Source: an uncultured Alphaproteobacteria bacterium (GTDB taxonomy: Bacteria > Pseudomonadota > Alphaproteobacteria > Bin95). Taken from it: a stretch of 64,000 nucleotides of DNA. Shown here piece after piece: positions 31,053 through 60,473 of the stretch. Location of the stretch: NCBI GenBank assembly GCA_963974445.1, contig CAXBDI010000004.1:1068-65067 (forward strand). Direction: 5' to 3'. A program made the position numbers and the translations under genes. Numbering within the stretch: position 1 is the first letter of the stretch; each line of letters opens with the position of its first letter. The notes under the pieces were generated by a model. The model saw only the letters and a list, made by a program, of their open reading frames with translations, was not told the DNA's origin and made no database searches.

Positions 31053-31236
31053 GTGCTTCCCTCTGTTCCACCACTCTTTTGACCGAAATACACTCGAGAG
31101 GCAGATTTGCTCGCGGACCATAGTGAAGTTACATTGGCGGGCCAAGGGCCCATGCCTGAGACGCCATCGCGCAGCGGTCTGCCGGACCTCGGCCCTGTAT
31201 GCTGTGCTTGCCGTAGCGAAACCGGAGATACCAAGA

Positions 31237-32268
31237 ATGCGCGCCGTTTGGGTGGAAGATTGGAAACCGTTCGAGCAATTGCAACTGGAGCAGGTGCCGA
31301 ATCCTGTGATCGGCCCGCGCCAAGTCCGGGTTAGGACACAGGCAGCCGGTGTCAGTTTCGCGACCAGCCTGGTGGTCGAAGGCAAATATCAGCGCAAACC
31401 GCCCCGCCCCTTCGCCCCCGGTACGGAGGTTGCGGGCATCGTAACAGAGATCGGGTCCGAGGTGACCCGGTTCAAGCCTGGCGATCGGGTCTGCTCGGTC
31501 CTGGATTGGGGTGGCTTGGCTGACGAAGCCGCAGCGTTCGAGGTCAACACCTACAAAATCCCAGACGGCATGCCGTTCCCCGAAGCGATCTGCCTCACCA
31601 ATTCCTATGGCACGAGTGCGGCGGCCTTCACCTGGCCTCACTTGCTCCAGGTGAAGCGGGGAGATTGGGTGCTGGTGCATGGTGCTGCGGGTGGCGTTGG
31701 TATTGCGGCGGTAGAGATCGGCAAGATTCTCGGCGCGACCATCATCGCCACTGCAAGCTCCGACGAAAAGCTGGAGCTAGTGAAGGCGCATGGCGCGGAT
31801 CACACCATCAATTATCGCCATGAAAATTTCCGGGACCGCGTGCTGGAAATCACTAATGGCCGTGGCGTCGATGCCGTCTATGACCCCGTCGGCGGCGACG
31901 TGTTCATGCAGTCTCTACGCTGCATGGCACCGGAAGGCCGGATCATGCCGGTCGGCTTTGCCAGCGGCACGATCCAGCAAATTCCGGCCAATATCCTGTT
32001 GGTGAAGAACCTGACGGTCTGCGGACTCAATGCAGGCTACTATGTCGGTTGGTCGCCAAACGATGTCCGCTACGAATACGAAGACCGGATGCGGGCGTTA
32101 ATGACCTTGATTTTTGATTGGTTTGAGGCTGGCCAGATCAACCCCGTCTCCGGCGGTGTCCTCCCACTGGAACGCTTCCAGGATGCCATGGCAGAAGTGT
32201 TGGGCCGACGGGCGCAAGGCCGTATTTCCATCGTGATGAACGAAGAAGCGCAGAAGCACGGCTTTTGA
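31237..32268 (+). CDS. NADPH:quinone oxidoreductase / zinc-free MDR-family dehydrogenase.
   Basis: MDR fold with a GAAGGVG cofactor motif. The start is at MRAVWVED. The track ORF begins at 31012. Confidence 0.75.
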   Translation: MRAVWVEDWKPFEQLQLEQVPNPVIGPRQVRVRTQAAGVSFATSLVVEGKYQRKPPRPFAPGTEVAGIVTEIGSEVTRFKPGDRVCSVLDWGGLADEAAAFEVNTYKIPDGMPFPEAICLTNSYGTSAAAFTWPHLLQVKRGDWVLVHGAAGGVGIAAVEIGKILGATIIATASSDEKLELVKAHGADHTINYRHENFRDRVLEITNGRGVDAVYDPVGGDVFMQSLRCMAPEGRIMPVGFASGTIQQIPANILLVKNLTVCGLNAGYYVGWSPNDVRYEYEDRMRALMTLIFDWFEAGQINPVSGGVLPLERFQDAMAEVLGRRAQGRISIVMNEEAQKHGF

Positions 32269-33699: not shown

Positions 33700-34944
33700 G
33701 TGACCGAGCGCGACCGGCTCGTCGCCGGCCAGTACGAGGCCTATCCCTATCCCGACCGCAAGCCGGCGGACGAGCGCAAGCGCCTGATCGAGGGCTCGCC
33801 CTCCGCCCTGCCGGAGCTAACGCACTATCTGTTCCACGGCGAAACGCCCAACCCCTTCCGCGCCCTGATCGCCGGCGGCGGCACCGGCGACGCCGCGATC
33901 ATGTTGGCCCAGCATTGCGCGAGCGCGGGGCTGGATGCGGAGATCGTCTACCTCGATATGTCCGCCGCCGCCCGGGCTGTGACCGAGGCCAGAGCCAAGG
34001 TGCGCGGGCTCACCAATCTGCGTTACGTCACCGGCTCATTGTTGGAGGTGGGTACGCTGGCGCCCGGACCCTACGACTACATCGATTGCTGCGGCGTGCT
34101 GCACCATCTGGAGCAACCGGGGGACGGCCTGAAGGCGCTGGCCGGGCAGTTGAAGCCCGCCGGCGGCATGGGGCTGATGGTGTATGGCGCGCTTGGCCGC
34201 CGCGGCGTCTATGAGACGCAGGCGCTGCTGCGCCATCTCGCCCCGCCGGACCGGCCCGACCGGGAGCGGCTGACCCAAACCCGCCGCCTGTTGGAGGCGC
34301 TGCCCCGCACCAACTGGTTGCGCCGCAACCCCTTCGTCCAGGATCACCGCGAGGCGGGAGACGCCGGCCTCTACGACCTGCTGCTGCACGCCCGCGACCG
34401 GGCCTATACGGTTGAAGAGTTGGCCGAATTCGTGGGCGCGGCGGAGTTAAACATCGCCGCATTCATCGAACCGGCCCGTTACGATCCCGCGACGTACCTG
34501 CGCGATCCGCGTTTGTTGGCACCGTTGCAAGTACTTGATCCAATTGCCCGAGCCGCCGCGGCGGAGGCTTTGTGCGGCAACCTCCGCAAGCACATAGTGT
34601 ACCTGACCCCGGCGGGCGGGCGCCAGGGCCGCACGGCCGATCCGGCAGACCGTTCCCTGGTGCCGGTACTGCCGCGCCACGCGCCGGAGGTTTTGGCCAA
34701 AGCGCTGCGCAGTGGCAGCCTGAGCGTCGATCTTGAGGGCTTTCCGGCCAAGTTCCCCGCTCCCCCTCGCGCCGCCGCCATCGTGCAGCGGATGGATGGA
34801 AGGCGCTCTATCACCGCTATTCTCGGCGAATTGCGCGCCGCCGATCTGGCTCTTAGTGAGGATGCGGCGACGGAGGCGTTCAATGCGGTCTACCGGCTGT
34901 TGAACGGGCTGAACCTGCTGTTGTTGCGACGATCCCGCGCTTAG
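33700..34944 (+). CDS. Class I SAM-dependent methyltransferase (414 aa) with a C-terminal extension.
   Basis: GTG start 11 bp after the DHPS-like stop. Motif I LIAGGGTGD and the post-I acidic residue (…VYLDMS…). The C-terminal ~200 aa has no assignable function. Confidence 0.65.
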   Translation: MTERDRLVAGQYEAYPYPDRKPADERKRLIEGSPSALPELTHYLFHGETPNPFRALIAGGGTGDAAIMLAQHCASAGLDAEIVYLDMSAAARAVTEARAKVRGLTNLRYVTGSLLEVGTLAPGPYDYIDCCGVLHHLEQPGDGLKALAGQLKPAGGMGLMVYGALGRRGVYETQALLRHLAPPDRPDRERLTQTRRLLEALPRTNWLRRNPFVQDHREAGDAGLYDLLLHARDRAYTVEELAEFVGAAELNIAAFIEPARYDPATYLRDPRLLAPLQVLDPIARAAAAEALCGNLRKHIVYLTPAGGRQGRTADPADRSLVPVLPRHAPEVLAKALRSGSLSVDLEGFPAKFPAPPRAAAIVQRMDGRRSITAILGELRAADLALSEDAATEAFNAVYRLLNGLNLLLLRRSRA

Positions 34945-35470
34945 TGCGAGAGGCCTAAGCTTCGTCCATTCCTTCTCCCGTGCTCGACACGGGATCCATG
35001 CCTGAGGCTTGCCAGACAGGCTCCCGGCCTATGATCGCCTCTCAGGCATGGACCCCGGGGCAAGGGGAATGAGGGTAAAGAGGCCAGCGACCGGCAATGA
35101 AGCCGCGGTCTTAGTGCGAGAGGCTTAAGCTTCCTCCATTCCTTTTCCCGTGCTCGACACGGGATCCACGCCTGAGGCTTGCCAGACAGGCTCCCGGCGT
35201 GCCGTAGTCTCTCAGGCATGGACCCCGGGGCAAGCCCGGGGCAAGGGGAATGAGGGTAAAGAGGCCAGCGACCGGCGATGAAGCCGCGGTCTTAGTGCGA
35301 GAGGCCTGAGCCCCAGTCTATTCTTTTCCCGTGCTCGATACGGGATCCATGCCGGAGGCTTGCCAGACAGACTCCCGGCCTGTGATCGCCTCTCAGGCAT
35401 GGACCCCGGGTCAAGCCCGGGGCAAGGGGGAAGAGGGTAAAGAGGCTAGCAGCCGGCGATGATGCGTGAC
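34941..35470. repeat. Tandem array of three ~170-180-bp palindromic (hairpin-forming) repeat units. Unit starts are 34941, 35111 and 35292.
   Basis: Each unit starts ttagtgcgagaggc… and contains an inner palindrome cccgtgctcga(c/t)acggg plus long imperfect inverted arms (ggatccatgcctgaggcttgccagacag… / …cctctcaggcatggaccccggggcaaggggaatgagggtaaagagg). Copies are about 90% identical. The small ORFs called here are artefacts. Confidence 0.85.
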
Positions 35471-35531
35471 GCGCCGCAATCGGCCCATTAGGGTCAACCG
35501 ACCTAACTGATGCATCCGGAGTTCCGCTCAC

Positions 35532-36689
35532 GTGACCCTCGCCGCCGCTGCCGGTTTCGACCCCGGCCCGAATGCCCGCCTTGTTGGCCAGCCCAGCTCT
35601 CGCAACGAGTTGGATACACCGGCATTGCTGATCGATCTGGACGCCATGGAGGCGAATATCCAGGCGATGGCCGACCATTGCGCCACTACCGGCCAGCGGC
35701 TGCGCCCGCACACCAAGACGCACAAATCGGTGGAGATCGCCCGCCGCCAGGTCGCCGCCGGCGCGGTCGGCGTCTGCTGCGCGACACTGGGCGAGGCGGA
35801 AGTCATGGGCCGGGCCGGCATCCCCGGCGTGCACATTACTTCCCCTGTGGTCAGGCCGCACCGCATCGAGCGGTTGATCGCCCTGAATGCGGATGCCGAG
35901 AGCCTGTCGGTCGTCGCCGATCACCCGGATAACCTCACGGCCCTAGCGGAGGCCGCGGCTGCCGCCGGTCAGACGCTCAACATCATGGTCGATATCGATG
36001 TCGGCTCACGCCGCACCGGCGTCCCCTCCGCCCAGCAGGCGACGGCGTTGGCAGAGCAGGTGCAGAAGGCCTCCCACCTGACGCTTGCCGGCATCCAGGG
36101 CTATGCGGGCGGCCTGCAGCACATCTACGATTGGGACGAACGCGTCCGGCGCGGGCAGGAAGTTGCCGACTTTCTAAAGGAGGTGCGCCGGCAACTGGGC
36201 GAAGCCGGCATCGAACCGCCGGTGTTCTCCGGTGGCGGCACGGGCACGCACGCCATCGACCACAGCCAGGGCGTGCTGAACGAGTTGCAGGCGGGCTCCT
36301 ACGTCTTCCTCGACGTCGACTACCAACGCGTCGCCCATGCCGGCGAGGCCGCCAAGCGGTTCCGTGAGGCGCTGTTCGTGCAGGCGAGCGTCGTCAGCGC
36401 CGCGCAGGAGGACTGCGTCACCACCGATGCCGGCCTGAAGGCGTTCGCCACCGATTGCGGCGTCCCGGAGCTGCGCCGCGGTGCGCCGGAAGGTGCGTTC
36501 TATGGCTTTGCCGGCGACGAGCATGGCCGCATCACGTTTGCCGGCAGCGAACGGCTGCCGCTCGGCGCGGTGGTCGAATGCCTGTCGCCGCACTGCGACC
36601 CGACCGTCAACCTCTACAGCGTCTATCACGTCGTCCGAGGCGACACGCTGGTGGATATCTGGCCGGTCGATACCCGTGGTCTGCGGTAG
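35532..36689 (+). CDS. DSD1-family PLP enzyme (D-serine dehydratase-like / D-threonine aldolase-like, alanine-racemase N-terminal fold).
   Basis: 385 aa. PLP-Lys context …RLRPHTKTHKSVEIA…, followed by the …SGGGTGTH… and …FLDVDYQRV… regions typical of DSD1/DTA proteins. Confidence 0.7.
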   Translation: MTLAAAAGFDPGPNARLVGQPSSRNELDTPALLIDLDAMEANIQAMADHCATTGQRLRPHTKTHKSVEIARRQVAAGAVGVCCATLGEAEVMGRAGIPGVHITSPVVRPHRIERLIALNADAESLSVVADHPDNLTALAEAAAAAGQTLNIMVDIDVGSRRTGVPSAQQATALAEQVQKASHLTLAGIQGYAGGLQHIYDWDERVRRGQEVADFLKEVRRQLGEAGIEPPVFSGGGTGTHAIDHSQGVLNELQAGSYVFLDVDYQRVAHAGEAAKRFREALFVQASVVSAAQEDCVTTDAGLKAFATDCGVPELRRGAPEGAFYGFAGDEHGRITFAGSERLPLGAVVECLSPHCDPTVNLYSVYHVVRGDTLVDIWPVDTRGLR

Positions 36690-47481: not shown

Positions 47482-47664
47482 TCATCCGGAAAGCGTCGAG
47501 GGCGGTTTTGACGACGTCCGAGACGTCTTTGCCGGGCGCTGCAGCGTCAGCACCAACTCCACCAGCTCATCCTTGCTGAGCTTCGTATCCGTCCGGTCTG
47601 GGCGCTCTTGCATGATGGCTGCTGATGTCGATCCTTCAGACCCGTAGTGGGCGCTAGTGTCCAT
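47482..47664 (-). pseudogene. Transposase N-terminal remnant (leucine-zipper / …KDELVELVL.LQRPAKTSRTSSKPPS motif), copy 1.
   Basis: 60-aa ORF. Its motif is near-identical to the N-terminus of the artefactual 493-aa ORF at 52907. The N-terminal motif fits IS66-family TnpC-type transposases, but family assignment is tentative. Confidence 0.5.
47498..47583. repeat. 86-bp direct repeat, copy A. Partner is 52801-52886, with 3 mismatches.
   Basis: gagggcggttt(t/c)gacgacgtccgagacgtctttgccgggcgctgcagc(g/t)tcagcaccaactccacca(g/a)ctcatccttgctgagctt. Confidence 0.85.
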
Positions 47665-47693
47665 TAACGGAAGTGGACACTTAGGCGACCCTT

Positions 47694-48053
47694 ATGGCGA
47701 GGCGAAAGCAACGAGTCCGGCGGTTCTGGCCTGACGAAGAGAAGCGCCGGATCGTGGCACAAGCGCTGGCTTCGGGGGTATCGGTGGCCCAGGTTGCCCG
47801 GCGCTATGACCTCAATGCCAACCAGGTCTTCAACTGGCTGCACGATCCACGCTACCAGCCAGACGACGACGTTCTAGCCGAGACACAGTTCCTGCCTGTC
47901 GAGATTGTCGGGGAACCACGAGCCGAGCGTCAGCTTGAGCCGCCTGCCGCAGGGTATATCGAAGTCGCGCTGGCGAACGGACGCAGCATCCGGCTGATCG
48001 GCGATGTCGATCCGGATGCGGTCGCGCGATTGGTCCGGAGTCTGGAGACATGA
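47694..48053 (+). mobile_element. IS66-family accessory protein TnpA (orfA).
   Basis: 119 aa (…WPDEEKRRIVAQALASGVSVAQVARRYDLNANQVFNWL…). It has a 4-bp ATGA-type overlap with the next ORF, as in IS66 tnpA-tnpB. Confidence 0.8.
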
Positions 48054-48349
48054 TCCCGGTTCCGGCATCAACAAAGGTCTGGCTGGCGGGTGGCATCACC
48101 GACATGGGCAAGGGCTTTGCCGGATTGGCTGCGTCGGCGGAGGCAATCCTGAACACCGATCCCTACAACGGGCATCTGTTCGTGTTCCGCAGCCGCCGCG
48201 GTGATCTCATCGAGGTTATCTGGTGGGACGGCCAGGGCGCTTGCCTGTTCTCGAAGCGTTTGGAGAAGGGGCGCTTTGTCTGGCCGTCCGTCGCCGACGG
48301 CAAGGTTCACGTCACTGCAGCCCAACTTTCCGTGCTGCTCGAAGGCTGA
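48050..48349 (+). mobile_element. IS66-family TnpB (orfB).
   Basis: 99 aa ([67 protein letters not shown]…), the classic IS66 OrfB. Confidence 0.8.
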
Positions 48350-48513
48350 GGAGGGTCAGACAACGATCCGGGGGATCGTTTTTTCGACGAAGGACTGGCG
48401 AATGCCGCTACGAACCTGGCGGCCGTTGGTGGCAGGTTAAAACTCCCGGATTTTTGCCGTTTTCCGGTCGTTTTGGGATTCCCTGGCCGTGTTGATTTTG
48501 CTAGCATTTCCAT

Positions 48514-49260
48514 ATGCTCGACGAGGTCAAAACCCTGCCCAACGACCCGGCTCTCCTCAAAGGATTGATCGTCTCGCTGACGTCGGAGTTGACCAGCCGT
48601 GATGTCTTGATCGCCAAGCTGCAGCACCAGCTTTCCGGTCTCCGCCGCCATCAGTTCGGCTCCCGTTCGGAAAGCATCGATCAGCTTGAACTGACCCTGG
48701 AAGAGCAAGAGATCGCCCGCGCCGCCGAAGCGCCAGCCATCCCACCCGACCAAGCTAAGGGCGAGAAGCGCCAGCCCAAACGCCGCCCCTTGCCGAAGAA
48801 CCTGCCTCGGCGCGAGACCCTGTTATCGCCGGGCGAGATCTGTGCCGGTTGCGGCGGCAAGTTGCGTGCGTTCGACCAGGATGTGACCGAAGAATTGGAA
48901 TACATTCCAGGCCGGTTTGTCGTGAACCGGATTGTGCGGCCCGTTGCCTGGCAGGCGATGCCTGCATCGCCGAGAAGGGCGTATGGCCTGTTCCTGCTGC
49001 GAACAGATCGTGCAAGCGCCACTGCCGTCCCGTCCCATTGAGCGCGGGCGGCCAGAGCCGGGATTGCTGGCGCACGTGCTGGTCGGCAAATATGCCGACC
49101 ACTTGCCGCTCTATCGCCAAAGCCAGATATTCGGGCACGATGGCATCGATCTGCCTCGTTCGACACTGACCGACTGGGTCGGGCAAGCAACGAACCTGCT
49201 AGAGCCATTAGCAGAGGCCATTGGCCGTTCTACAGCGGCAATCTGGATGAGAAGCGCATT
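48514..49260 (+). pseudogene. IS66-family transposase TnpC, frameshifted and 3'-truncated.
   Basis: The N-terminus has an LZ region and a zinc finger (…GEICAGCGGKLR…). It continues in another frame (48932..): …LLAHVLVGKYADHLPLYRQSQIFGHDGIDLPRSTLTDWV…. It stops about half-way to the expected ~500 aa. Confidence 0.75.
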
Positions 49261-49289
49261 GCCTCGCCAGAACTGTTCCCGCAGGATCT

Positions 49290-49905
49290 TTGCTTGCCGC
49301 ATTAGAGGTGTTCCTGAGGGTCACTTCGGAGGCAGGCATGAGGCGGATCAGCATGGCAACGAGAGACGAACTCCTGAAGGCGGTGGCATCGCGATACCGG
49401 TGCGCACGGCGCGCCGAGAAGGGCCGGATTTTGACGGAGTTTGCGGAGATCTCCGGATATCATCGCAAGCATGCCGAGCGGCTTCTCCGGCGCGGGCCCG
49501 TTGTGGACCGCTCCCGGTCCCGGCCCGAGCGGCGGGTATACGACGAGCGTCCGCCGGATGGTGGGCTATCGCCGATACTCGGGCATCACCGCGGCAACCG
49601 AACTGGCGCGGCTCTATCGCAGCATGCCATCGTTCAAGCTGATGGAGAAGACCCGTGACGGCGCCCGGGTGGCGAAGCGCTACCATGCTCCGCTGACACC
49701 GTGCCAGCGCGTCCAGGCCCATCCGGCCGTTGCCCACGAAACGAAGGTTGCGCTGGCGGTGCGGTTCGGGACGCTCGACCCGGTCATGCTGCTCCACGAC
49801 ATCCGACAGGCACAGGCCCGGCTCACGGCGCTGGCCGATGCCACGCCATCCGCCGAAGCCAGCGTCGGCGCCAAGGCCGACGTGGAGCAGTTCCTCGAGG
49901 TGTAG
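49290..49905 (+). pseudogene. Transposase-like fragment of unassigned family, split over two frames.
   Basis: 49290..49658 (…ISMATRDELLKAVASRYRCARRAEKGRILTEFAEISGYHRKHAERLL…) then 49441..49905 (…KTRDGARVAKRYHAPLTPCQRV…). HTH-like N-terminus. Interrupted and flanked by other IS remnants. Confidence 0.4.
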
Positions 49906-50008
49906 CGCGACAATCTGAGTGAGAAGCGGGCGACGATCAAGATGAGAACCCAGTGTCGCAGCGTATTGATGATCGCGGCGAAGATTGTCGCGCGCAAGCT
50001 TTGCTTTT

Positions 50009-50686
50009 TCAGTCTGATTGTCGTGGAGCGTCAGCGGCGGCGGTATTGACGGGTGTGGCGTATGAGGCGGGTCGTCCGCGTCCCCGCTTTTTCTCGATGG
50101 CAACGCGTCGTCGGTAGCTTTCGACGTTCATCTCGAAGATGGTGGCGTGATGGACCAGTCGGTCGACGGCGGCGAGCATCATGGCGGGGTCGGGAAAGAT
50201 CTTACCCCATTCGCCGAAGGGCTGGTTGGCGGTGATCAGCATCGATCGTCGCTCGTATCTGGCACTGATCAGTTCGAACAGCACGCTGGTCTCGGCCTGA
50301 TCCTTGGCGACGTAGGCGAGGTCGTCGAGGATCAGCAGGTGATAGCGGTCGAGCCGATTGATGGCGGCTTCGAGGCCGAGTTCGCGGCGGGCGACCTGGA
50401 GCTTCTGGACGAGGTCCGTCGTCCGGGTGAAGAGCACGCGCCAGCCGTTCTCGATCAGGGCGAGGCGGATGCGAGATGGCTCTTGCCTCCGCCGGAGCCG
50501 CCCCAGGAACACCACATTCTCACGCCGGGCGACGAAGGCCAAAGCCGCCAGGTGTTCGATCTGCTTGTGCGGAACCGTCGTTGCAAACTTGAAGTCATAC
50601 TCTTCCAACGTCTTCACCACTGGGAAGCCGGCCATCCGCACCAGCGTCGCGGCTGAGCGCGCCCGCCGGCAGTCCCGCTCCGTCAC
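50009..50686 (-). pseudogene. IS21-family IstB helper ATPase, degenerate.
   Basis: IstB motifs are present (…FPVVKTLEEYDFKF…, …LLILDDLAYV…, …RSMLITANQPFGEWGKIFPD…LDRLVHH…). The Walker A GPPGVGKTH is not recognisable and is replaced by GRLRRRQEPSRIRLA. Confidence 0.65.
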
Positions 50687-50689
50687 CAG

Positions 50690-51015
50690 CGCCTCTTCCA
50701 GGAAGTCCAGAAAGCTCTGTTCAATCTCCGCCGCCCGGGTGGCCAGGGCAGGAAAGCTCTCGGCCAGGCCGGCCAGCTTCAGTTCGTTGCAGAGCTCGAC
50801 CAGGCGATCCGACTGCAGGCTCGTGCCGCCGCCCGCCCGATGGTGTCATAGATGGCAAGGTCGTGCTGCTCGATACTGAACCCGCTCAAGTCAGCGACTG
50901 CCGGTTGCCCCGTCTCACGCCATTGTGCCGCCCTTGGCAGCAGCAATGCCTGCTCGTCCGCAAACCGGTCTGTGGGCCACTGTTTCGTCTCGCCATGGCA
51001 GCGCACATTGGTCAC
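50690..51015 (-). pseudogene. IS21 IstA C-terminal fragment.
   Basis: Short minus-strand ORF immediately upstream of istB (50779..51015 and flanking sequence). The N-terminal part of IstA is missing. Confidence 0.35.
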
Positions 51016-51084
51016 GTTGCGCAGCCAGGCGCCGACCTCGGCATTGGCTGTCGCGGCATCGAGCCGGCGGCGCTTCTCGGCGAC

Positions 51085-51333
51085 AAAGGCTACGACGGTG
51101 ATGCCTTGATCTCAGCCCTGGAAAGACGCGCAATCAAGCCGGTGATCCCGCCGAAATCCAACCGCAAGGTCAAACACGACTGCGATTTCGCACTCTACCG
51201 CGAGCGCAACCTGATCGAGCGTTTCTTCAACACTATCAAACAGTTCAGAGGCATCGCCACACGTTACGAAAAAACTGCGCGGAACTTTCTCGCCGGCCTT
51301 CACTTGGTCTGTGCACTCGTTTGGCTCAAATGA
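51085..51333 (+). pseudogene. IS5-family (DDE_Tnp_1) transposase C-terminal fragment.
   Basis: …LLGDKGYDGDALISALERRAIKPVIPPKSNRKVKHDCDFALYRERNLIERFFNTIKQFRGIATRYEKTARNFLAGLHLVCALVWL, the typical IS5/IS427-group C-terminus. The N-terminal ~2/3 is absent. Confidence 0.7.
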
Positions 51334-51425
51334 CGACACGCCCTAACCCCGATCAGTATGCTGCGGTTTTGTGTTCGGCCAGAATGTCGCATCCGGCGAA
51401 TAGTGGATCAACTGCGCCAGCCGCG

Positions 51426-52463
51426 CTAAACCGAGATGATGACCTTGAGCGCCTTGGTCTTGGCGGCATCGCCGAAGGTGTCATAGGCCGCAACGATCTC
51501 ATCAAGCTTGAAGTGGTGGGTGATCAACTGCGTCGGATCGATCTTCTTTGATGCCACCGTCTTGAACAGCATCGGGATCGTGACCGTATCGACCAGCCGG
51601 GTGGTGATCGCGATGTTGCGGTCCCAGAGTTTTTCCAGATGCAGATCGACCTTCTTGCCATGCACGCCGACGTTGGCGATGGTCCCGCCCGCTGTCACAA
51701 GCTCCTGACACAACTCGAAAGTGGCGGGAATCCCGACAGCCTCGATCACGGTATCGACGCCGCGGTTCTCGGTCAGTTTCATCACCGCGTCCAGCGCCTT
51801 GCCATCGGAACTGTTGATCGTCGCCGTCGCGCCGAATTTGGTTCCGGTCTGCAATCGGTTGTCGTCCAGATCGATCATGATGATCTCGGCGGGTGAGTAG
51901 AATTGCGCGGTCAGAAGCGCCGCCAGCCCGATCGGCCCCGCCCCGACGATCGCCACGGTGCTGCCGGGGGCGATCCGACCGTTCAGAACCCCGCATTCGA
52001 GGCCCGTCGGCAGGATGTCGCTGAGCATCACCAGCGCCTCTTCATCGGTGCCCTTCGGGATGTGATAGAGGCTCATGTCGGCATGCGGCGTGCGCACGAA
52101 TTCGGCCTGGGTTCCGTCGATTGTATTGCCCAGAATCCAGCCGCCCGTCGTGCAGTGCGAATACATCTGCTTGCGGCAATAGACGCATGTGCCGCAAGCG
52201 CTGACACAGGAAATCAGCACATGATCTCCAGCCTTGAAGGCGGTCACGGCAGGCCCGACCTTGTCGATGATGCCGACCCCTTCATGCCCCAGGATACGGC
52301 CCGGTTCACAGGTCGGCACGTCGCCCTTGATGATGTGCAGATCGGTGCCACAGATCGTGGTTTTCGACATCCGCACAATGGCATCGGTAGGTTCGGATAT
52401 CTCGGGCTTCGGGCGATCCTCCAGCGATTTTTTTCCTACAGCCTTATAGACCAGCGCTTTCAT
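51426..52463 (-). CDS. Zinc-dependent alcohol dehydrogenase (MDR family).
   Basis: 345 aa from MKALVYK. Catalytic Zn ligands (…CGTDLH…GHEGVG…), structural Zn motif CVSACGTCVYCRKQMYSHC and NAD motif GAGPIGL. The track fuses it to an upstream transposase fragment (to 52907), which is an artefact. Confidence 0.85.
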   Translation of the reverse strand: MKALVYKAVGKKSLEDRPKPEISEPTDAIVRMSKTTICGTDLHIIKGDVPTCEPGRILGHEGVGIIDKVGPAVTAFKAGDHVLISCVSACGTCVYCRKQMYSHCTTGGWILGNTIDGTQAEFVRTPHADMSLYHIPKGTDEEALVMLSDILPTGLECGVLNGRIAPGSTVAIVGAGPIGLAALLTAQFYSPAEIIMIDLDDNRLQTGTKFGATATINSSDGKALDAVMKLTENRGVDTVIEAVGIPATFELCQELVTAGGTIANVGVHGKKVDLHLEKLWDRNIAITTRLVDTVTIPMLFKTVASKKIDPTQLITHHFKLDEIVAAYDTFGDAAKTKALKVIISV

Positions 52464-52758
52464 GATCGGTGTCCTTGTTTTGGAAGCCGAAGCTTCAATT
52501 GAGCGCCACCGGACTTCGGCATGCATGGATTGCGTGCCGCCTGCTGATGTGCCCGTTGGGGCGCAGGTGCTTTTGGACAGGTGCGATATCCAACAGAATG
52601 ACACAGATGCAGGAGGCCGTTGTTGATCCAGATCAATGTTCGGGTTTCGCAGCAACTCAACCTCGAGGCCCGGGACCGCCAGCCAGCAGTCCGGCGAGCA
52701 TTTGCAGAAGCCACGCAATCGTGATGAATAAGGCGGCGGATCTGCCACCGAACAGGTT

Positions 52759-52907
52759 TTGCGCGGCCTGGCCCAGGTTCGAGGCAGATCCCGCTCCCCC
52801 GAGGGCGGTTTCGACGACGTCCGAGACGTCTTTGCCGGGCGCTGCAGCTTCAGCACCAACTCCACCAACTCATCCTTGCTGAGCTTCTCGAGGGCATCAC
52901 GATCCAT
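52759..52907 (-). pseudogene. Transposase N-terminal remnant, copy 2 (MDRDALEKLSKDELVELVLKLQRPAKTSRTSSKPPS…).
   Basis: It holds direct-repeat copy B (52801-52886) and has the same orientation and motif as 47482-47664. Confidence 0.5.
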
Positions 52908-53078: not shown

Positions 53079-53153
53079 ATGGCTCCGCGGGTAGGATTCG
53101 AACCTACGACCGATCGGTTAACAGCCGATTGCTCTACCACTGAGCTACCGCGG
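53079..53153 (-). tRNA. tRNA-Asn (anticodon GUU).
   Basis: 75-nt cloverleaf TCCGCGGTAGCTCAGTGGTAGAGCAATCGGCTGTTAACCGATCGGTCGTAGGTTCGAATCCTACCCGCGGAGCCA. It has the U1:A72 pair and G73 typical of bacterial tRNA-Asn, anticodon loop CTGTTAA and an encoded CCA. Confidence 0.9.
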
Positions 53154-53287
53154 ACCAAGCGTTGGGGCTTAGGTGGAGGAGCGTCGCCTCCCTGCCGAAC
53201 GAGCGCGCATACTAGTGCGCACCTGCGGCGTTGCCAAGCGCGAACTGGCGCCCGCAATGCCGCAGTTTTCAGATGCGAGTCTGATGC

Positions 53288-60038: not shown

Positions 60039-60473
60039 TTAGTCGGCAGCGCCACCCTCGGCTTCGGCCTGGGCAGCACGCGCTGCGGCTTTTTCCGCCA
60101 TCGCATTGCGCGACGCGCGGCTGCGCTCGGCAATACGCGCCGACTTCCCGCGACGCTCACGCAGATAGTAGAGTTTCGCCCGGCGCACCCGGCCCTGGCG
60201 CACCACATCGATGGACTCGATATTCGGCGAATACAGCGGGAACACGCGCTCCACACCCTCACCGGACGAGATCTTGCGCACGGTGAAGGAGGAGCTGATG
60301 CCGGCGCTCTTGCGTCCAATACAGACGCCCTCATAGGCCTGCACGCGCTCGCGCGTGCCCTCGACGACCTTGTAGTTGACCCGGACGGTGTCGCCCGGGC
60401 GAAACTCTGGAACCGGGCGCTCCGACGTCAGTTTCTTGATATTGGCAGCGTCGATTTGCTGAATAATGTTCAT
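60039..60473 (-). CDS. rplS: 50S ribosomal protein L19 with a short Ala/Glu-rich C-terminal tail.
   Basis: [52 protein letters not shown]… The track ORF's 122-aa N-terminal extension is spurious. Confidence 0.9.

Follow-up and report, generated by a model that had tools for sequence, protein, structure and literature searches.

What is the conspicuous repeat that separates two neighboring genes in an uncultured marine alphaproteobacterium, and how did it come to lie there? In the window, by which we mean the whole stretch of 64,000 nucleotides that was analyzed, the repeat lies between the ORF of a 414-aa class I SAM methyltransferase (33700-34944, TAG stop at 34942-34944) and an Ala_racemase_N/D-Ser-dehydratase-like gene with a GTG start at 35532, both on the plus strand. 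An earlier reading, made from the sequence alone, had let the array run from the methyltransferase TAG to about 60 bp before the next gene, which matches the positions of the TAG and the GTG. It had left open whether the array was a terminator or attenuator stack, a small-RNA locus or a REP/BIME-like mosaic element. The reading that we favor, with a probability of about 70%, is that a CGTC-type REP dimer was set into the intergenic spacer and was then tandemly reiterated twice together with flanking DNA.

In the array (34941-35472), three units, U1 to U3, with lengths of 170, 181 and 181 bp, follow one another head to tail and make up about 530 bp of structured repeat in all. Tandem Repeats Finder reported a period of 181 with 2.7 copies (score 697, 34940-35415), a repeat search of the array gave three copies at spacings of 170 and 181 bp, and the alignment of 34941-35110, 35111-35291 and 35292-35472 had a mean column identity of 91%. 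The three tandem units of about 170-180 bp starting at 34941, 35111 and 35292, as proposed by the sequence-only reading, were thus borne out by all three analyses. The pairwise identities are 93% for U1-U2, 84% for U1-U3 and 82% for U2-U3. The linkers of U1 and U2 are 93-98% identical, and those of U3 match the other units at 70-73% on the left and 70-73% on the right. U3 has indeed diverged at its 5' third, as had been noticed, but the divergence extends to its right linker as well.

Each unit consists of a palindromic core of about 123 nt and a non-palindromic linker of about 58 nt. In the core, two REP hairpins of about 28 nt form a head-to-head dimer with their tags outward, and each hairpin is laid out as a 4-nt tag, an 8-bp stem, a 5-nt loop (CTYGA or CTTGC), the returning 8-bp stem and a CCA tail. 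The two REPs of a dimer are linked by the complementary arms CCATGCCTGAG and CTCAGGCATGG, which form the ends of a spacer of about 51 nt from tail to tail. The signature of one REP half accordingly reads tag, 8-bp stem, CTYGA loop, stem, CCA and TGCCTGAG. Five REPs in the array are intact, with no more than one mismatch in each 8-bp stem. The positions of the individual elements are collected in Table 1.

Table 1. Positions of the array, its REP hairpins and its borders within the window (REPs are written as tag/stem/loop/stem/tail).
Feature	Position	Strand	Description
Methyltransferase 3' end	34921..34944	+	includes TAG; last ~5-12 nt (CCGCG..CTTAG) repeated at each of the two junctions between units (GCCGCGGTCTTAG)
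Unit 1	34941..35110	+	170 bp; linker, REP head-to-head dimer, linker; right REP truncated by 11-nt deletion
U1 left REP	34971..34998	+	CCTT/CTCCCGTG/CTCGA/CACGGGAT/CCA
U1 dimer spacer	34996..35051	.	central stem; complementary ends CCATGCCTGAG ... CTCAGGCATGG, invariant between lineages
U1 right REP	35049..35068	-	truncated; tail TGG, first stem arm and loop kept, second arm deleted
Unit 2	35111..35291	+	181 bp; palindromic core 35133-35255 (123 nt)
U2 left REP	35141..35168	+	CCTT/TTCCCGTG/CTCGA/CACGGGAT/CCA
U2 dimer spacer	35166..35221		equivalent of U1 34996-35051
U2 right REP	35219..35246	-	CCTT/GCCCCGGG/CTTGC/CCCGGGGT/CCA (minus-strand reading)
Unit 3	35292..35472	+	181 bp; most diverged, outer stem decayed
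U3 left REP	35322..35349	+	TCTT/TTCCCGTG/CTCGA/TACGGGAT/CCA
U3 dimer spacer	35347..35402		equivalent of U1 34996-35051
U3 right REP	35400..35427	-	CCTT/GCCCCGGG/CTTGA/CCCGGGGT/CCA (minus-strand reading)
Leftover spacer	35473..35531	+	carries GGAG ribosome-binding site of downstream gene; aligns with relatives' 39-46-bp spacer

Two details of the units differ from what had first been proposed. The supposed 11-nt perfect inner palindrome turns out to be a hairpin, CCCGTG-CTCGA-CACGGG, in which a stem of 6-7 bp encloses a loop of 5 nt. An internal 12-bp duplication had been assigned to U2; the sequence concerned, the 11-nt CCCGGGGCAAG, is the loop plus the second arm of the right-hand REP hairpin and is found twice in U2, twice in U3 and once in U1. 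Since it is doubled in both U2 and U3, and since relatives too have this part of the right-hand hairpin, it is U1 that carries a deletion and U2 has no duplication.

Elements homologous to the core are dispersed and intergenic in other genomes such as Bosea. The 19-mer CTCAGGCRTGGAYCCCGGG, degenerate (Y) at one position, was found in at least 112 stretches of species-representative genomes, about 100 of them from Bosea and related MAGs; the matches listed are dominated by the Bosea GGATCCC variant and do not include the window's own species. Among these matches the 19-mer always lies inside a palindrome of about 110 nt, GTCATCCCGG...CCGGGATGAC, and an nhmmer profile of the three units aligns to elements of the family only at unit positions ~31-140. 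The motif centers of 99 of the 112 matches listed fall outside GC3-called genes, where genes account for 77% of the bases, and the flanking gene pairs among these matches are co-directional in 50 cases, convergent in 23 and divergent in 9. The Bosea copies among the matches listed end in a CCA tail in 85 of 93 cases, and their left-end tags are CGTC (43/91), GGTC (29/91) or TGTC (11/91). In individual homologous elements the tag is CGTC (L021, L034), GGTC (L004) or CCTC (L006, left). The elements of Bosea and Fulvimarina that are nhmmer-homologous to the units read CGTC/ATCCCGGG/CTTGA/CCCGGGAT/CCA, with the canonical AT...AT stem start. In the sampled Bosea loci the density is about one dimer of ~110 nt per ~24 kb. 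With two inverted CGTC-type REP hairpins in every unit and dispersed, intergenic homologues elsewhere, the REP/BIME-like option is the one that gained support.

The whole 181-bp unit behaves differently from its core. No second locus was found for it among the matches listed from GTDB representatives or in the JGI metagenome collection, and a plasmid BLAST with one unit gave no match. In the JGI metagenomes a window-specific 20-mer turned up the locus itself (L121), a solo copy (L120) and nothing else. The solo copy, on a TARA marine contig whose host organism is not assigned, is a single core without linkers, 78% identical and located between other genes. Within the 64-kb window, the search beyond the array by seeds, nhmmer and mismatch patterns yielded one weak REP-like singlet (31139-31160), and the ~1-3 kb gained past the window edges through exact-protein look-ups held no further copy. 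Nothing scored when the translation of a spurious 92-aa ORF across the repeat was used as a protein query, and a literature search by sequence strings returned cloning primers only. The ~58-nt linkers are absent from the homologous elements elsewhere (L120, L006, L101 and Bosea). The sequence-only reading had made the presence of copies elsewhere the test of a repeat family as opposed to a local duplication, and the answer is divided: the 181-bp unit occurs, among the matches listed and in the other collections searched, only here and is a local duplication, and the ~123-nt core is a member of a repeat family.

What did the site look like without the array? Loci L122-L128, from three related lineages whose methyltransferases are 74-78% identical to that of the window, show the same gene order, but their two genes are separated by a mere 39-46 bp in which the element is missing. 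The site between the methyltransferase and the downstream gene is thus empty in related lineages. The nearest array-less relatives stand at 74-78% amino acid identity, too far off for the place of insertion and the succession of steps to be mapped base by base. In the window, the first REP begins 26 nt past the methyltransferase TAG, and the repeat homology extends a few bases into the 3' end of the methyltransferase gene (CCGCG..CTTAG), becoming weak beyond ~12 nt. Neither the core nor the array is flanked by a direct duplication.

The folding of the units is uneven. U1 folds at -74.8 kcal/mol (z = -2.2 versus shuffles) and U2 at -83.2 kcal/mol (z = -2.3), and U3 is indistinguishable from shuffles (z = -0.2); where the z-scores fall below shuffles they are modest, from -2.2 to -2.45. 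The long imperfect hairpin that had been proposed for each unit is recovered as a hairpin or a four-way structure, with the z-score of U3 as just given. A comparison of six copies from four lineages placed 93.6% of cells in pairs, as against 22-57% in slid controls, and revealed double changes at ten pairs. The covarying versions of the left REP stem are GTG/CAC, GCG/CGC, GGG/CCC and AAA/TTT. REP stems, tails and arms are common to the lineages; loops and linkers are not conserved.

Could these hairpins affect the mRNA, and could they have been selected as a regulatory device? The flanking genes are co-oriented and only 39-46 bp apart in relatives, so that they are probably co-transcribed. Within such an operon mRNA, each dimer would fold as a very stable hairpin or four-way structure, which could stop 3'-to-5' exonucleases, or draw in endonucleases, in the stretch that separates the two cistrons. 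Such a barrier could uncouple the expression of the upstream gene from that of the downstream gene, as for REP/BIME elsewhere. Enterobacterial REP/BIME elements are documented to stabilise upstream mRNA segments, and by analogy with them we infer a possible hairpin-barrier role of the array. The stronger proposal, that an attenuator, a Rho-dependent terminator or an mRNA stabilizer was amplified to tune the ratio of the methyltransferase to the downstream enzyme, is consistent with three hairpins in series (-73 to -83 kcal/mol) and with a downstream gene that retains its own GGAG ribosome-binding site. However, copy number and hairpins bear no sign of selection; U1 has lost a REP arm and the outer stem of U3 has decayed, the relatives do without the array, and nothing sets the locus apart from a neutral REP cluster. 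A scan of 34000-36500 for promoters and terminators found no sigma-70-like promoter, no intrinsic terminator and no U-tract, which leaves the terminator or attenuator stack of the sequence-only reading unsupported. We consider a selected regulatory stack unlikely. The array encodes nothing and has neither a promoter nor an intrinsic terminator of its own, and its effect, if any, would be passive.

How, then, may the array have arisen? One REP dimer of ~123 nt would have come into a methyltransferase/downstream-gene spacer of originally ~40-46 bp. A segment of ~181 bp, comprising the dimer, ~58 nt of flank and the final few bases of the methyltransferase gene, would then have been reiterated twice in tandem, probably through unequal exchange or replication slippage at short homologies of the CGCG type. 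After the duplication the copies would have diverged by 7-18%, with U1 losing a hairpin arm and U3 its outer stem. The clean empty site, the reiteration of the dimer with bits of both flanks and the CGCG junctions mean that the locus could record an amplification of REP dimers that is independent of a transposase and relies on replication or recombination, for instance hairpin-induced template switching. Alternatively, the array could be a selected intercistronic RNA module. Between Bosea and the uncultured marine alphaproteobacterium the 11-nt arm CCATGCCTGAG and the CTTGA loop have hardly changed and the stems covary, which would fit a conserved protein partner. We offer these last three suggestions as speculation and give them little credence.

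A different origin would be three adjacent, independent insertions of a mobile MITE/REPIN-like element of ~170-180 bp, for example by a single-strand transposase that targets TTAG. CTTAG does precede each unit, (C/T)TAG is the ending of related genes too, the relatives have an empty site, and the mobilisation of REP-type elements is ascribed to IS200/IS605-like enzymes with insertion 3' of a short target (PMC3733652). The linkers speak against it. They are missing from all homologous elements elsewhere, as described above, and they contain copies of the last bases of the methyltransferase gene, which a tandem duplication of a segment predicts and repeated insertion does not. Since the linkers and the gene-end copies travel with each unit, TTAG-targeted insertion was rejected as the main explanation. 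The full-length unit is moreover confined to this locus among the GTDB matches listed and in the JGI metagenomes and plasmids searched, no Y1 transposase is present among the ORFs examined, and CGTC REPs are without an associated transposase (PMC3733652). Independent insertions are in our judgment quite improbable.

Lower still we place three tandem genes for small regulatory RNAs, or a processed sRNA locus, comparable to the AbcR1/2 or CcsR/cuckoo arrays downstream of an ORF. The units are tandem, homologous, highly structured and directly 3' of a gene, and for the pyrimidine-rich left outer arm of the unit (TTCCTCCATTCCTTTTCCC) pairing with Shine-Dalgarno sequences is conceivable in principle. 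These features are countered by the results of the promoter and terminator scan and by an Rfam search in which gathering thresholds gave no family and a cutoff of E<=10 added chance matches to miRNA hairpins and a 13.7-bit Atu_C10 fragment, and nothing more. The conserved part consists of REP stems and arms, not of a single-stranded seed; loops and linkers vary, the closest relatives are without the locus, and the fold of U3 has decayed. The small-RNA option of the sequence-only reading is accordingly very doubtful.

That a short-read metagenome assembly collapsed or looped a repeat is scarcely credible, for although five short-read contigs of the same organism end inside the array (L113, L115, L116, L118, L119) and a sixth (L114) shows a different order, U1-U2-U2-like, two independent metagenome assemblies agree with the window at 100% identity, L117 across the whole array and L121 over units 2-3, and a divergence of 7-18% between units is not what an assembly loop creates. 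The array itself accounts for the breaking of this organism's short-read contigs here.

Our preferred reading, a REP dimer reiterated with its flanks, explains a conspicuous repeat as an ordinary REP cluster, a common kind of bacterial junk or structural DNA, and its importance is limited to that extent. On this reading, an uncultured marine alphaproteobacterium joins the hosts of the CGTC-type REP superfamily, and the analysis documents an abundant family of the CGTC type in Bosea. The locus is a tidy natural case of a REP dimer reiterated along with its flanks at a site that is empty in relatives. It may help in the study of how transposase-less REPs amplify; CGTC-type REPs are not known to have a transposase.

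The closest known system is the CGTC-tagged REP superfamily, found mainly in Alphaproteobacteria (Di Nocera, De Gregorio & Rocco 2013, BMC Genomics 14:522; PMC3733652). Its REPs have a terminal, unpaired 4-nt tag CGTC, with TGTC and CCTC as accepted variants, a stem of 8-9 bp with A-T pairs at positions one and two, a loop of 4-5 nt and a short unpaired 3' CCA tail. The array REPs share with CGTC-2/CGTC-3 the 8-bp stem and the 5-nt CTTGA-type loop, and each of the five intact REPs, like the truncated right REP of U1, has its CCA tail. CGTC REPs occur mostly as HH dimers with the tags outside and spacers of 20-100 bp, sometimes with complementary ends (PMC3733652), and each unit of the array is one such dimer with a ~51-nt spacer of this kind. 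They are extragenic, near the 3' end of the upstream ORF and between unidirectional or convergent ORFs, and have no linked tyrosine transposase genes (PMC3733652); the array is likewise intergenic, just 3' of an ORF, between co-oriented genes and with no transposase nearby. The Starkeya novella CGTC-3 dimer, encoded in the supplement of that paper as VIPGLDPGIH...DGRVKPGHD, would correspond, when back-translated by hand, to the same GTCATCCC(C)GGGCTTGACCCGGGGATCCAT motif.

The array also departs from the superfamily in several respects. Its tags are CCTT (four) or TCTT (one), one base off CCTC. At the first stem position, where A-T would be expected, the left REPs have C.T or T.T and the right REPs G.T, the second pair is T-A only in the left REPs, and the left REP stem is CCCGTG/CACGGG. 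CGTC families comprise tens to thousands of units dispersed per host genome (PMC3733652); the 64-kb window and the few kb read beside it hold the array and the one weak singlet, and dispersal is shown for the homologous family in Bosea. The dimer is present three times in tandem with flanking DNA, and grouped CGTC elements are reported as rare (PMC3733652). The remark of the sequence-only reading that tandem repetition of a whole unit is atypical for REPs is upheld for the CGTC type, where none of 135 Bosea copies forms a tandem array, and holds for that type only. On its sequence, the array would be three head-to-head REP dimers of CGTC type with a degenerate tag, some features lying outside the strict definition of the superfamily.

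We know of no RAYT association for CGTC-type REPs. The units resemble REPINs (Bertels & Rainey 2011) in that two inverted REPs and a short spacer form one long hairpin and in that the family, in Bosea, is dispersed, intergenic and multicopy, but they have no GTAG cleavage motif, the tags being CCTT/TCTT in the array and NGTC in the relatives. Alphaproteobacteria seldom carry members of the largest RAYT group (PMC5581495). The ORFs examined in the window include no RAYT, and the neighbors of the array are the methyltransferase and the D-Ser-dehydratase-like enzyme. Fragments of IS elements at 47.6-51.4 kb of the window are of the DDE/IS21/IS66 types, not Y1. When considered as a MITE, the whole core is an imperfect palindrome; no flanking direct duplication was seen at the locus and no related IS was identified.

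RIME1 and RIME2 (Rhizobium-specific intergenic mosaic elements) and Bru-RS1/2 of Brucella are palindromic intergenic elements of ~100 bp in Hyphomicrobiales. By its size and position the array may be compared with them. In E. coli BIME-2, a tandem REP pair with conserved linkers, tandem reiteration is the rule. The array has no sequence relation to the GTAG-tagged enterobacterial REPs, and its linkers are specific to the locus, unlike the linker motifs of BIMEs, which are family-wide. In its architecture, however, it is similar to the BIMEs, being a head-to-tail, intercistronic mosaic of inverted REP pairs and linkers, and by analogy with BIMEs and GTAG REP clusters the same consequences at the mRNA level would be expected of it.

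Three head-to-tail units (U1, U2 and U3) lie between a methyltransferase ORF and a D-Ser-dehydratase-like ORF, starting at the TAG of the former and ending about 60 nt upstream of the GTG of the latter. This triplication, first read from the sequence alone, was confirmed by Tandem Repeats Finder (period 181, 2.7 copies, score 697), by a repeat search (copies spaced 170 and 181 bp apart) and by a three-way alignment with a mean column identity of 91%. The pairwise identities are 93% for U1-U2, 84% for U1-U3 and 82% for U2-U3. The best-kept parts (91-100%) are the short hairpins, or REPs, and the complementary arms joining them, while the most diverged are both U3 linkers (70-73%), the linker being the non-palindromic part of a unit, and the U2 central spacer (71%). 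The divergence of U3 had been placed in its 5' third; the 5' end has diverged, and so has the 3' end. The array is real, given that contig L117 spans it and contig L121 enters it, both 100% identical to the window and from independent metagenome assemblies of the same organism. Other short-read contigs of this organism end inside the array, and exact-protein matches put the window sequence in ENA, TARA and Logan marine metagenomes. In a further contig of the organism (L114:3297-3867; ENA ERZ3421942), the order is U1, U2, a second U2-like unit and then the contig end. This may be a copy-number variant with at least four units or a de Bruijn-graph loop, for which a 56-nt stretch identical in U1 and U2 is a candidate route.

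Features of the array and of the rest of the window
Feature	Position	Strand	Remarks
Array	34941-35472		three units
U1	34941-35110		170 bp
U2	35111-35291		181 bp
U3	35292-35472		181 bp
U2 palindromic core	35133-35255		123 nt
Methyltransferase ORF, 3' end	34915-34944		414-aa class I SAM methyltransferase
Methyltransferase stop codon	34942-34944		TAG
D-Ser-dehydratase-like ORF, start	35532		GTG; 385 aa, Ala_racemase_N/D-Ser-dehydratase-like
REP-like singlet	31139-31160	+	nhmmer E = 0.036
11-nt TCACCTGGCCT	31628-31638		flanked by GGCCT direct repeats
88-nt direct repeat, two copies	47497-47584, 52800-52887		97% identical
Patch together with the 88-nt repeats around it	47497-52887		~4 kb of insertion-sequence fragments: HTH_Tnp_1; IS66 leucine-zipper, zinc-finger and DDE pieces; IstB_IS21; DDE_Tnp_1
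ORF holding the second 88-nt copy in its 5' part	51426-52907	-	
tRNA gene near the second 88-nt copy	53083-53154	-	
Inverted repeat (repeat search)	60170-60207, 60371-60408		38-nt arms, 71% complementary, 163 nt apart

The palindromic core of U2 was delimited by self-alignment against the reverse complement, and the rest of the unit is ~58 nt of linker. The core consists of two short hairpins in inverted orientation. In its own 5' to 3' direction each starts with a 4-nt tag, goes on with a stem of 8 bp closing a 5-nt loop and ends in CCA, as in CCTT-CTCCCGTG-CTCGA-CACGGGAT-CCA and CCTT-GCCCCGGG-CTTGC-CCCGGGGT-CCA. The CCA tails continue into CCATGCCTGAG and CTCAGGCATGG, two complementary arms that pair as a central stem enclosing a ~30-nt loop. 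The inner motif, previously taken for an 11-nt perfect palindrome, is a stem-loop, CCCGTG-CTCGA-CACGGG. What had looked like an internal duplication in U2 is a deletion in U1: U2 and U3 each have two copies of the 11-nt CCCGGGGCAAG where U1 has one, and relatives share the hairpin whose loop and second arm it makes up.

As described from the sequence, the units form long imperfect hairpins. U1 folds at -74.8 kcal/mol (z = -2.2), its minus strand equally well at -76.9 kcal/mol, and U2 at -83.2 kcal/mol (z = -2.3). U3 gained nothing over its own shuffles (z = -0.2). Three homologous elements of other organisms were aligned with the three units, and from these six sequences RNAalifold derived a four-way structure of outer stem, left REP hairpin, invariant central stem and right REP hairpin. 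On this structure 93.6% of cells are paired, as compared with 22-57% when the partners were slid, and two-sided changes occur in ten pairs, a value matched in 1 of 500 shuffles. Around a constant loop CTYGA, covariation is seen in the stem of the left REP (GTG/CAC, GCG/CGC, GGG/CCC, AAA/TTT). Coming from six sequences, three of them near-identical, the covariation is supportive of structure conservation, not decisive.

Related elements were found in other genomes. The motif CTCAGGCRTGGAYCCCGGG occurs in at least 112 stretches of species-representative genomes, and about 100 of those listed come from Bosea species and MAGs related to them, with several in many of the genomes. Each Bosea-type match has the motif within a ~110-nt palindrome with the layout GTCATCCCGG-[variable hairpin]-CCGGGATCCATGCCkGAAC-loop-GCTCAGGCATGGATCCCGGG-[variable hairpin]-CCCGGGATGAC. 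Searches with the three units, by BLAST and as an nhmmer profile, aligned with these elements at unit positions ~31-140 only; the linkers matched none of them. Closer look-alikes are present in two uncultured alphaproteobacterial MAGs (L006, L101), and Fulvimarina pelagi (L021) has a half element. Among the matches listed, all 135 element places in Bosea loci are solo, with no head-to-tail array and the closest neighbours 350 bp apart. Motif centres lie outside GC3-called genes in 99 of the 112 matches listed, though 77% of bases are genic, and the genes flanking the listed elements are convergent in 23 cases, co-directional in 50 and divergent in 9. Extra copies in the sampled 8-kb loci correspond to about one Bosea dimer per ~24 kb. 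Many Bosea copies among the 19-mer match loci (L001-L112; for instance L018:1002-1059 and L034:3028-3094) carry a 14-22-nt insert, itself a hairpin, in place of the 5-nt REP loop, as in CCCGG-ACAAGCCGCGAAGCGGCGCCGAT-CCGGG and CCCGGG-TCTCCCTTCGGTCGC-CCGGG; the two REPs of a dimer often differ in their inserts, which makes them heterodimers.

In JGI metagenomes, a window-specific 20-mer hit L121 (the same locus) and one further contig, L120, and none else. L120 has a single ~100-nt core copy without linkers between two other genes, 78% identical to the unit core, and its right REP is that of U2, identical from stem through tail and arm. No further copy was detected in the few kb past the window edges, nor within the 64-kb window save one weak REP-like singlet. 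In the latter, GGGCC-AAG-GGCCC-ATGCCTGAG, a short hairpin leads into the arm sequence of the REP dimers (on the minus strand, an exact CTCAGGCATGG). An IalB-like gene and a Zn-dependent alcohol dehydrogenase gene diverge from the intergenic region that holds it, and it may be a decayed REP singlet or chance. At L113:7940, in another assembly of the same organism, the 11-nt TCACCTGGCCT is missing, and the Zn-dependent alcohol dehydrogenase ORF predicted there is a fragment of 199 aa; the cause is a polymorphism that shifts the frame or else an error of assembly. The patch between the 88-nt repeats has the look of a graveyard of insertion sequences or of what is left of an integrated element.

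The closest methyltransferase homologues (74-78% identical) are on contigs L122-L128 from at least three lineages, in which the gene order HPPK, pterin-binding enzyme, methyltransferase, D-Ser-dehydratase-like gene is kept; the two genes around the array are probably an operon. The spacer between them is 39-46 bp in those contigs versus 587 bp in the window, whose downstream end (CCGGAG to the start) aligns with the short spacers, and no element was detected at the L122-L128 loci. The ~540-bp array is therefore a lineage-specific gain. We infer a tandem reiteration of one segment, because the U1 and U2 linkers are 93-98% identical, the linkers have no locus other than the array among the matches listed, and both inter-unit junctions, GCCGCGGTCTTAG, resemble the end of the gene itself, CCCGCGCTTAG, as well as CGCGG(C/T)TAG of the relatives. 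The repeated stretch would run from the gene tail through the left linker and the REP dimer to the right linker, and the short CGCG-type homologies at either end are such as unequal exchange or slippage could use. Ongoing slippage or recombination, proposed in the sequence-only reading, is contradicted: the units differ by 7-18% versus ~100% identity between assemblies, which marks the duplications as old. Three independent insertions would not give the linker and junction pattern seen. The methyltransferase ends in LLRRSRA, where L122, L125 and L126 have FL(T/A/S)(D/G)RRG at equal length, each followed by the stop. The changed C-terminus coincides with the stretch resembling the junctions, and the repeat may have overwritten the gene end; conversion among the copies of the junction would be one way.

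As to function, the array is most likely a neutral or selfish REP cluster. Strong selection is spoken against by the decay of the U1 right REP and the U3 outer stem. By analogy with REP/BIME biology, its sole effect would be three very stable hairpins in the intercistronic mRNA, which could impede exonucleases or attract endonucleases and so uncouple both genes. A small-RNA locus, suggested earlier, is argued against by the lack of promoter-like sites in 34000-36500, by the lack of an Rfam family match for the array, and by conservation across lineages of REP stems, tails and arms and not of single-stranded segments. A stack of Rho-independent terminators is likewise argued against, with no terminator-like site detected in 34000-36500.

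The elements can be compared with the CGTC-tagged REP superfamily, found mainly in Alphaproteobacteria (Di Nocera, De Gregorio and Rocco 2013; PMC3733652). Its members have tags CGTC, with variants TGTC and CCTC, stems of 8-9 bp with A-T pairs first, loops of 4-5 nt and a CCA tail. They are mostly head-to-head dimers with spacers of 20-100 bp, in some with complementary ends, located between unidirectional or convergent ORFs; clusters are rare and a dedicated transposase is absent (PMC3733652). The literature argues against REPIN/RAYT membership of this type (PMC3733652), and Alphaproteobacteria rarely carry the largest group of RAYTs (PMC5581495). Two Bosea loci (L034, and L004 with tag GGTC) and Fulvimarina L021 read CGTC-ATCCCGGG-CTTGA-CCCGGGAT-CCA, an exact fit to the description; Bosea tags are CGTC, GGTC or TGTC, and the CCA tail is present in 85 of 93 copies. 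The window REPs share stem length, loop, tail, dimer geometry and position with CGTC REPs, whereas their tags are degenerate (CCTT/TCTT) and their first stem pair is not A-T. For these two reasons we class them, from their sequences, as divergent REPs of the CGTC type, which share homology with bona fide members without being strict members themselves. The earlier suggestion of a REP/BIME-like mosaic is supported by inverted REP dimers homologous to the dispersed, mostly extragenic Bosea elements. Grouping as in the array is rare for the CGTC type, and the array resembles E. coli BIME-2 in its architecture only. It adds a new member, repeated in tandem, to an already known element type.
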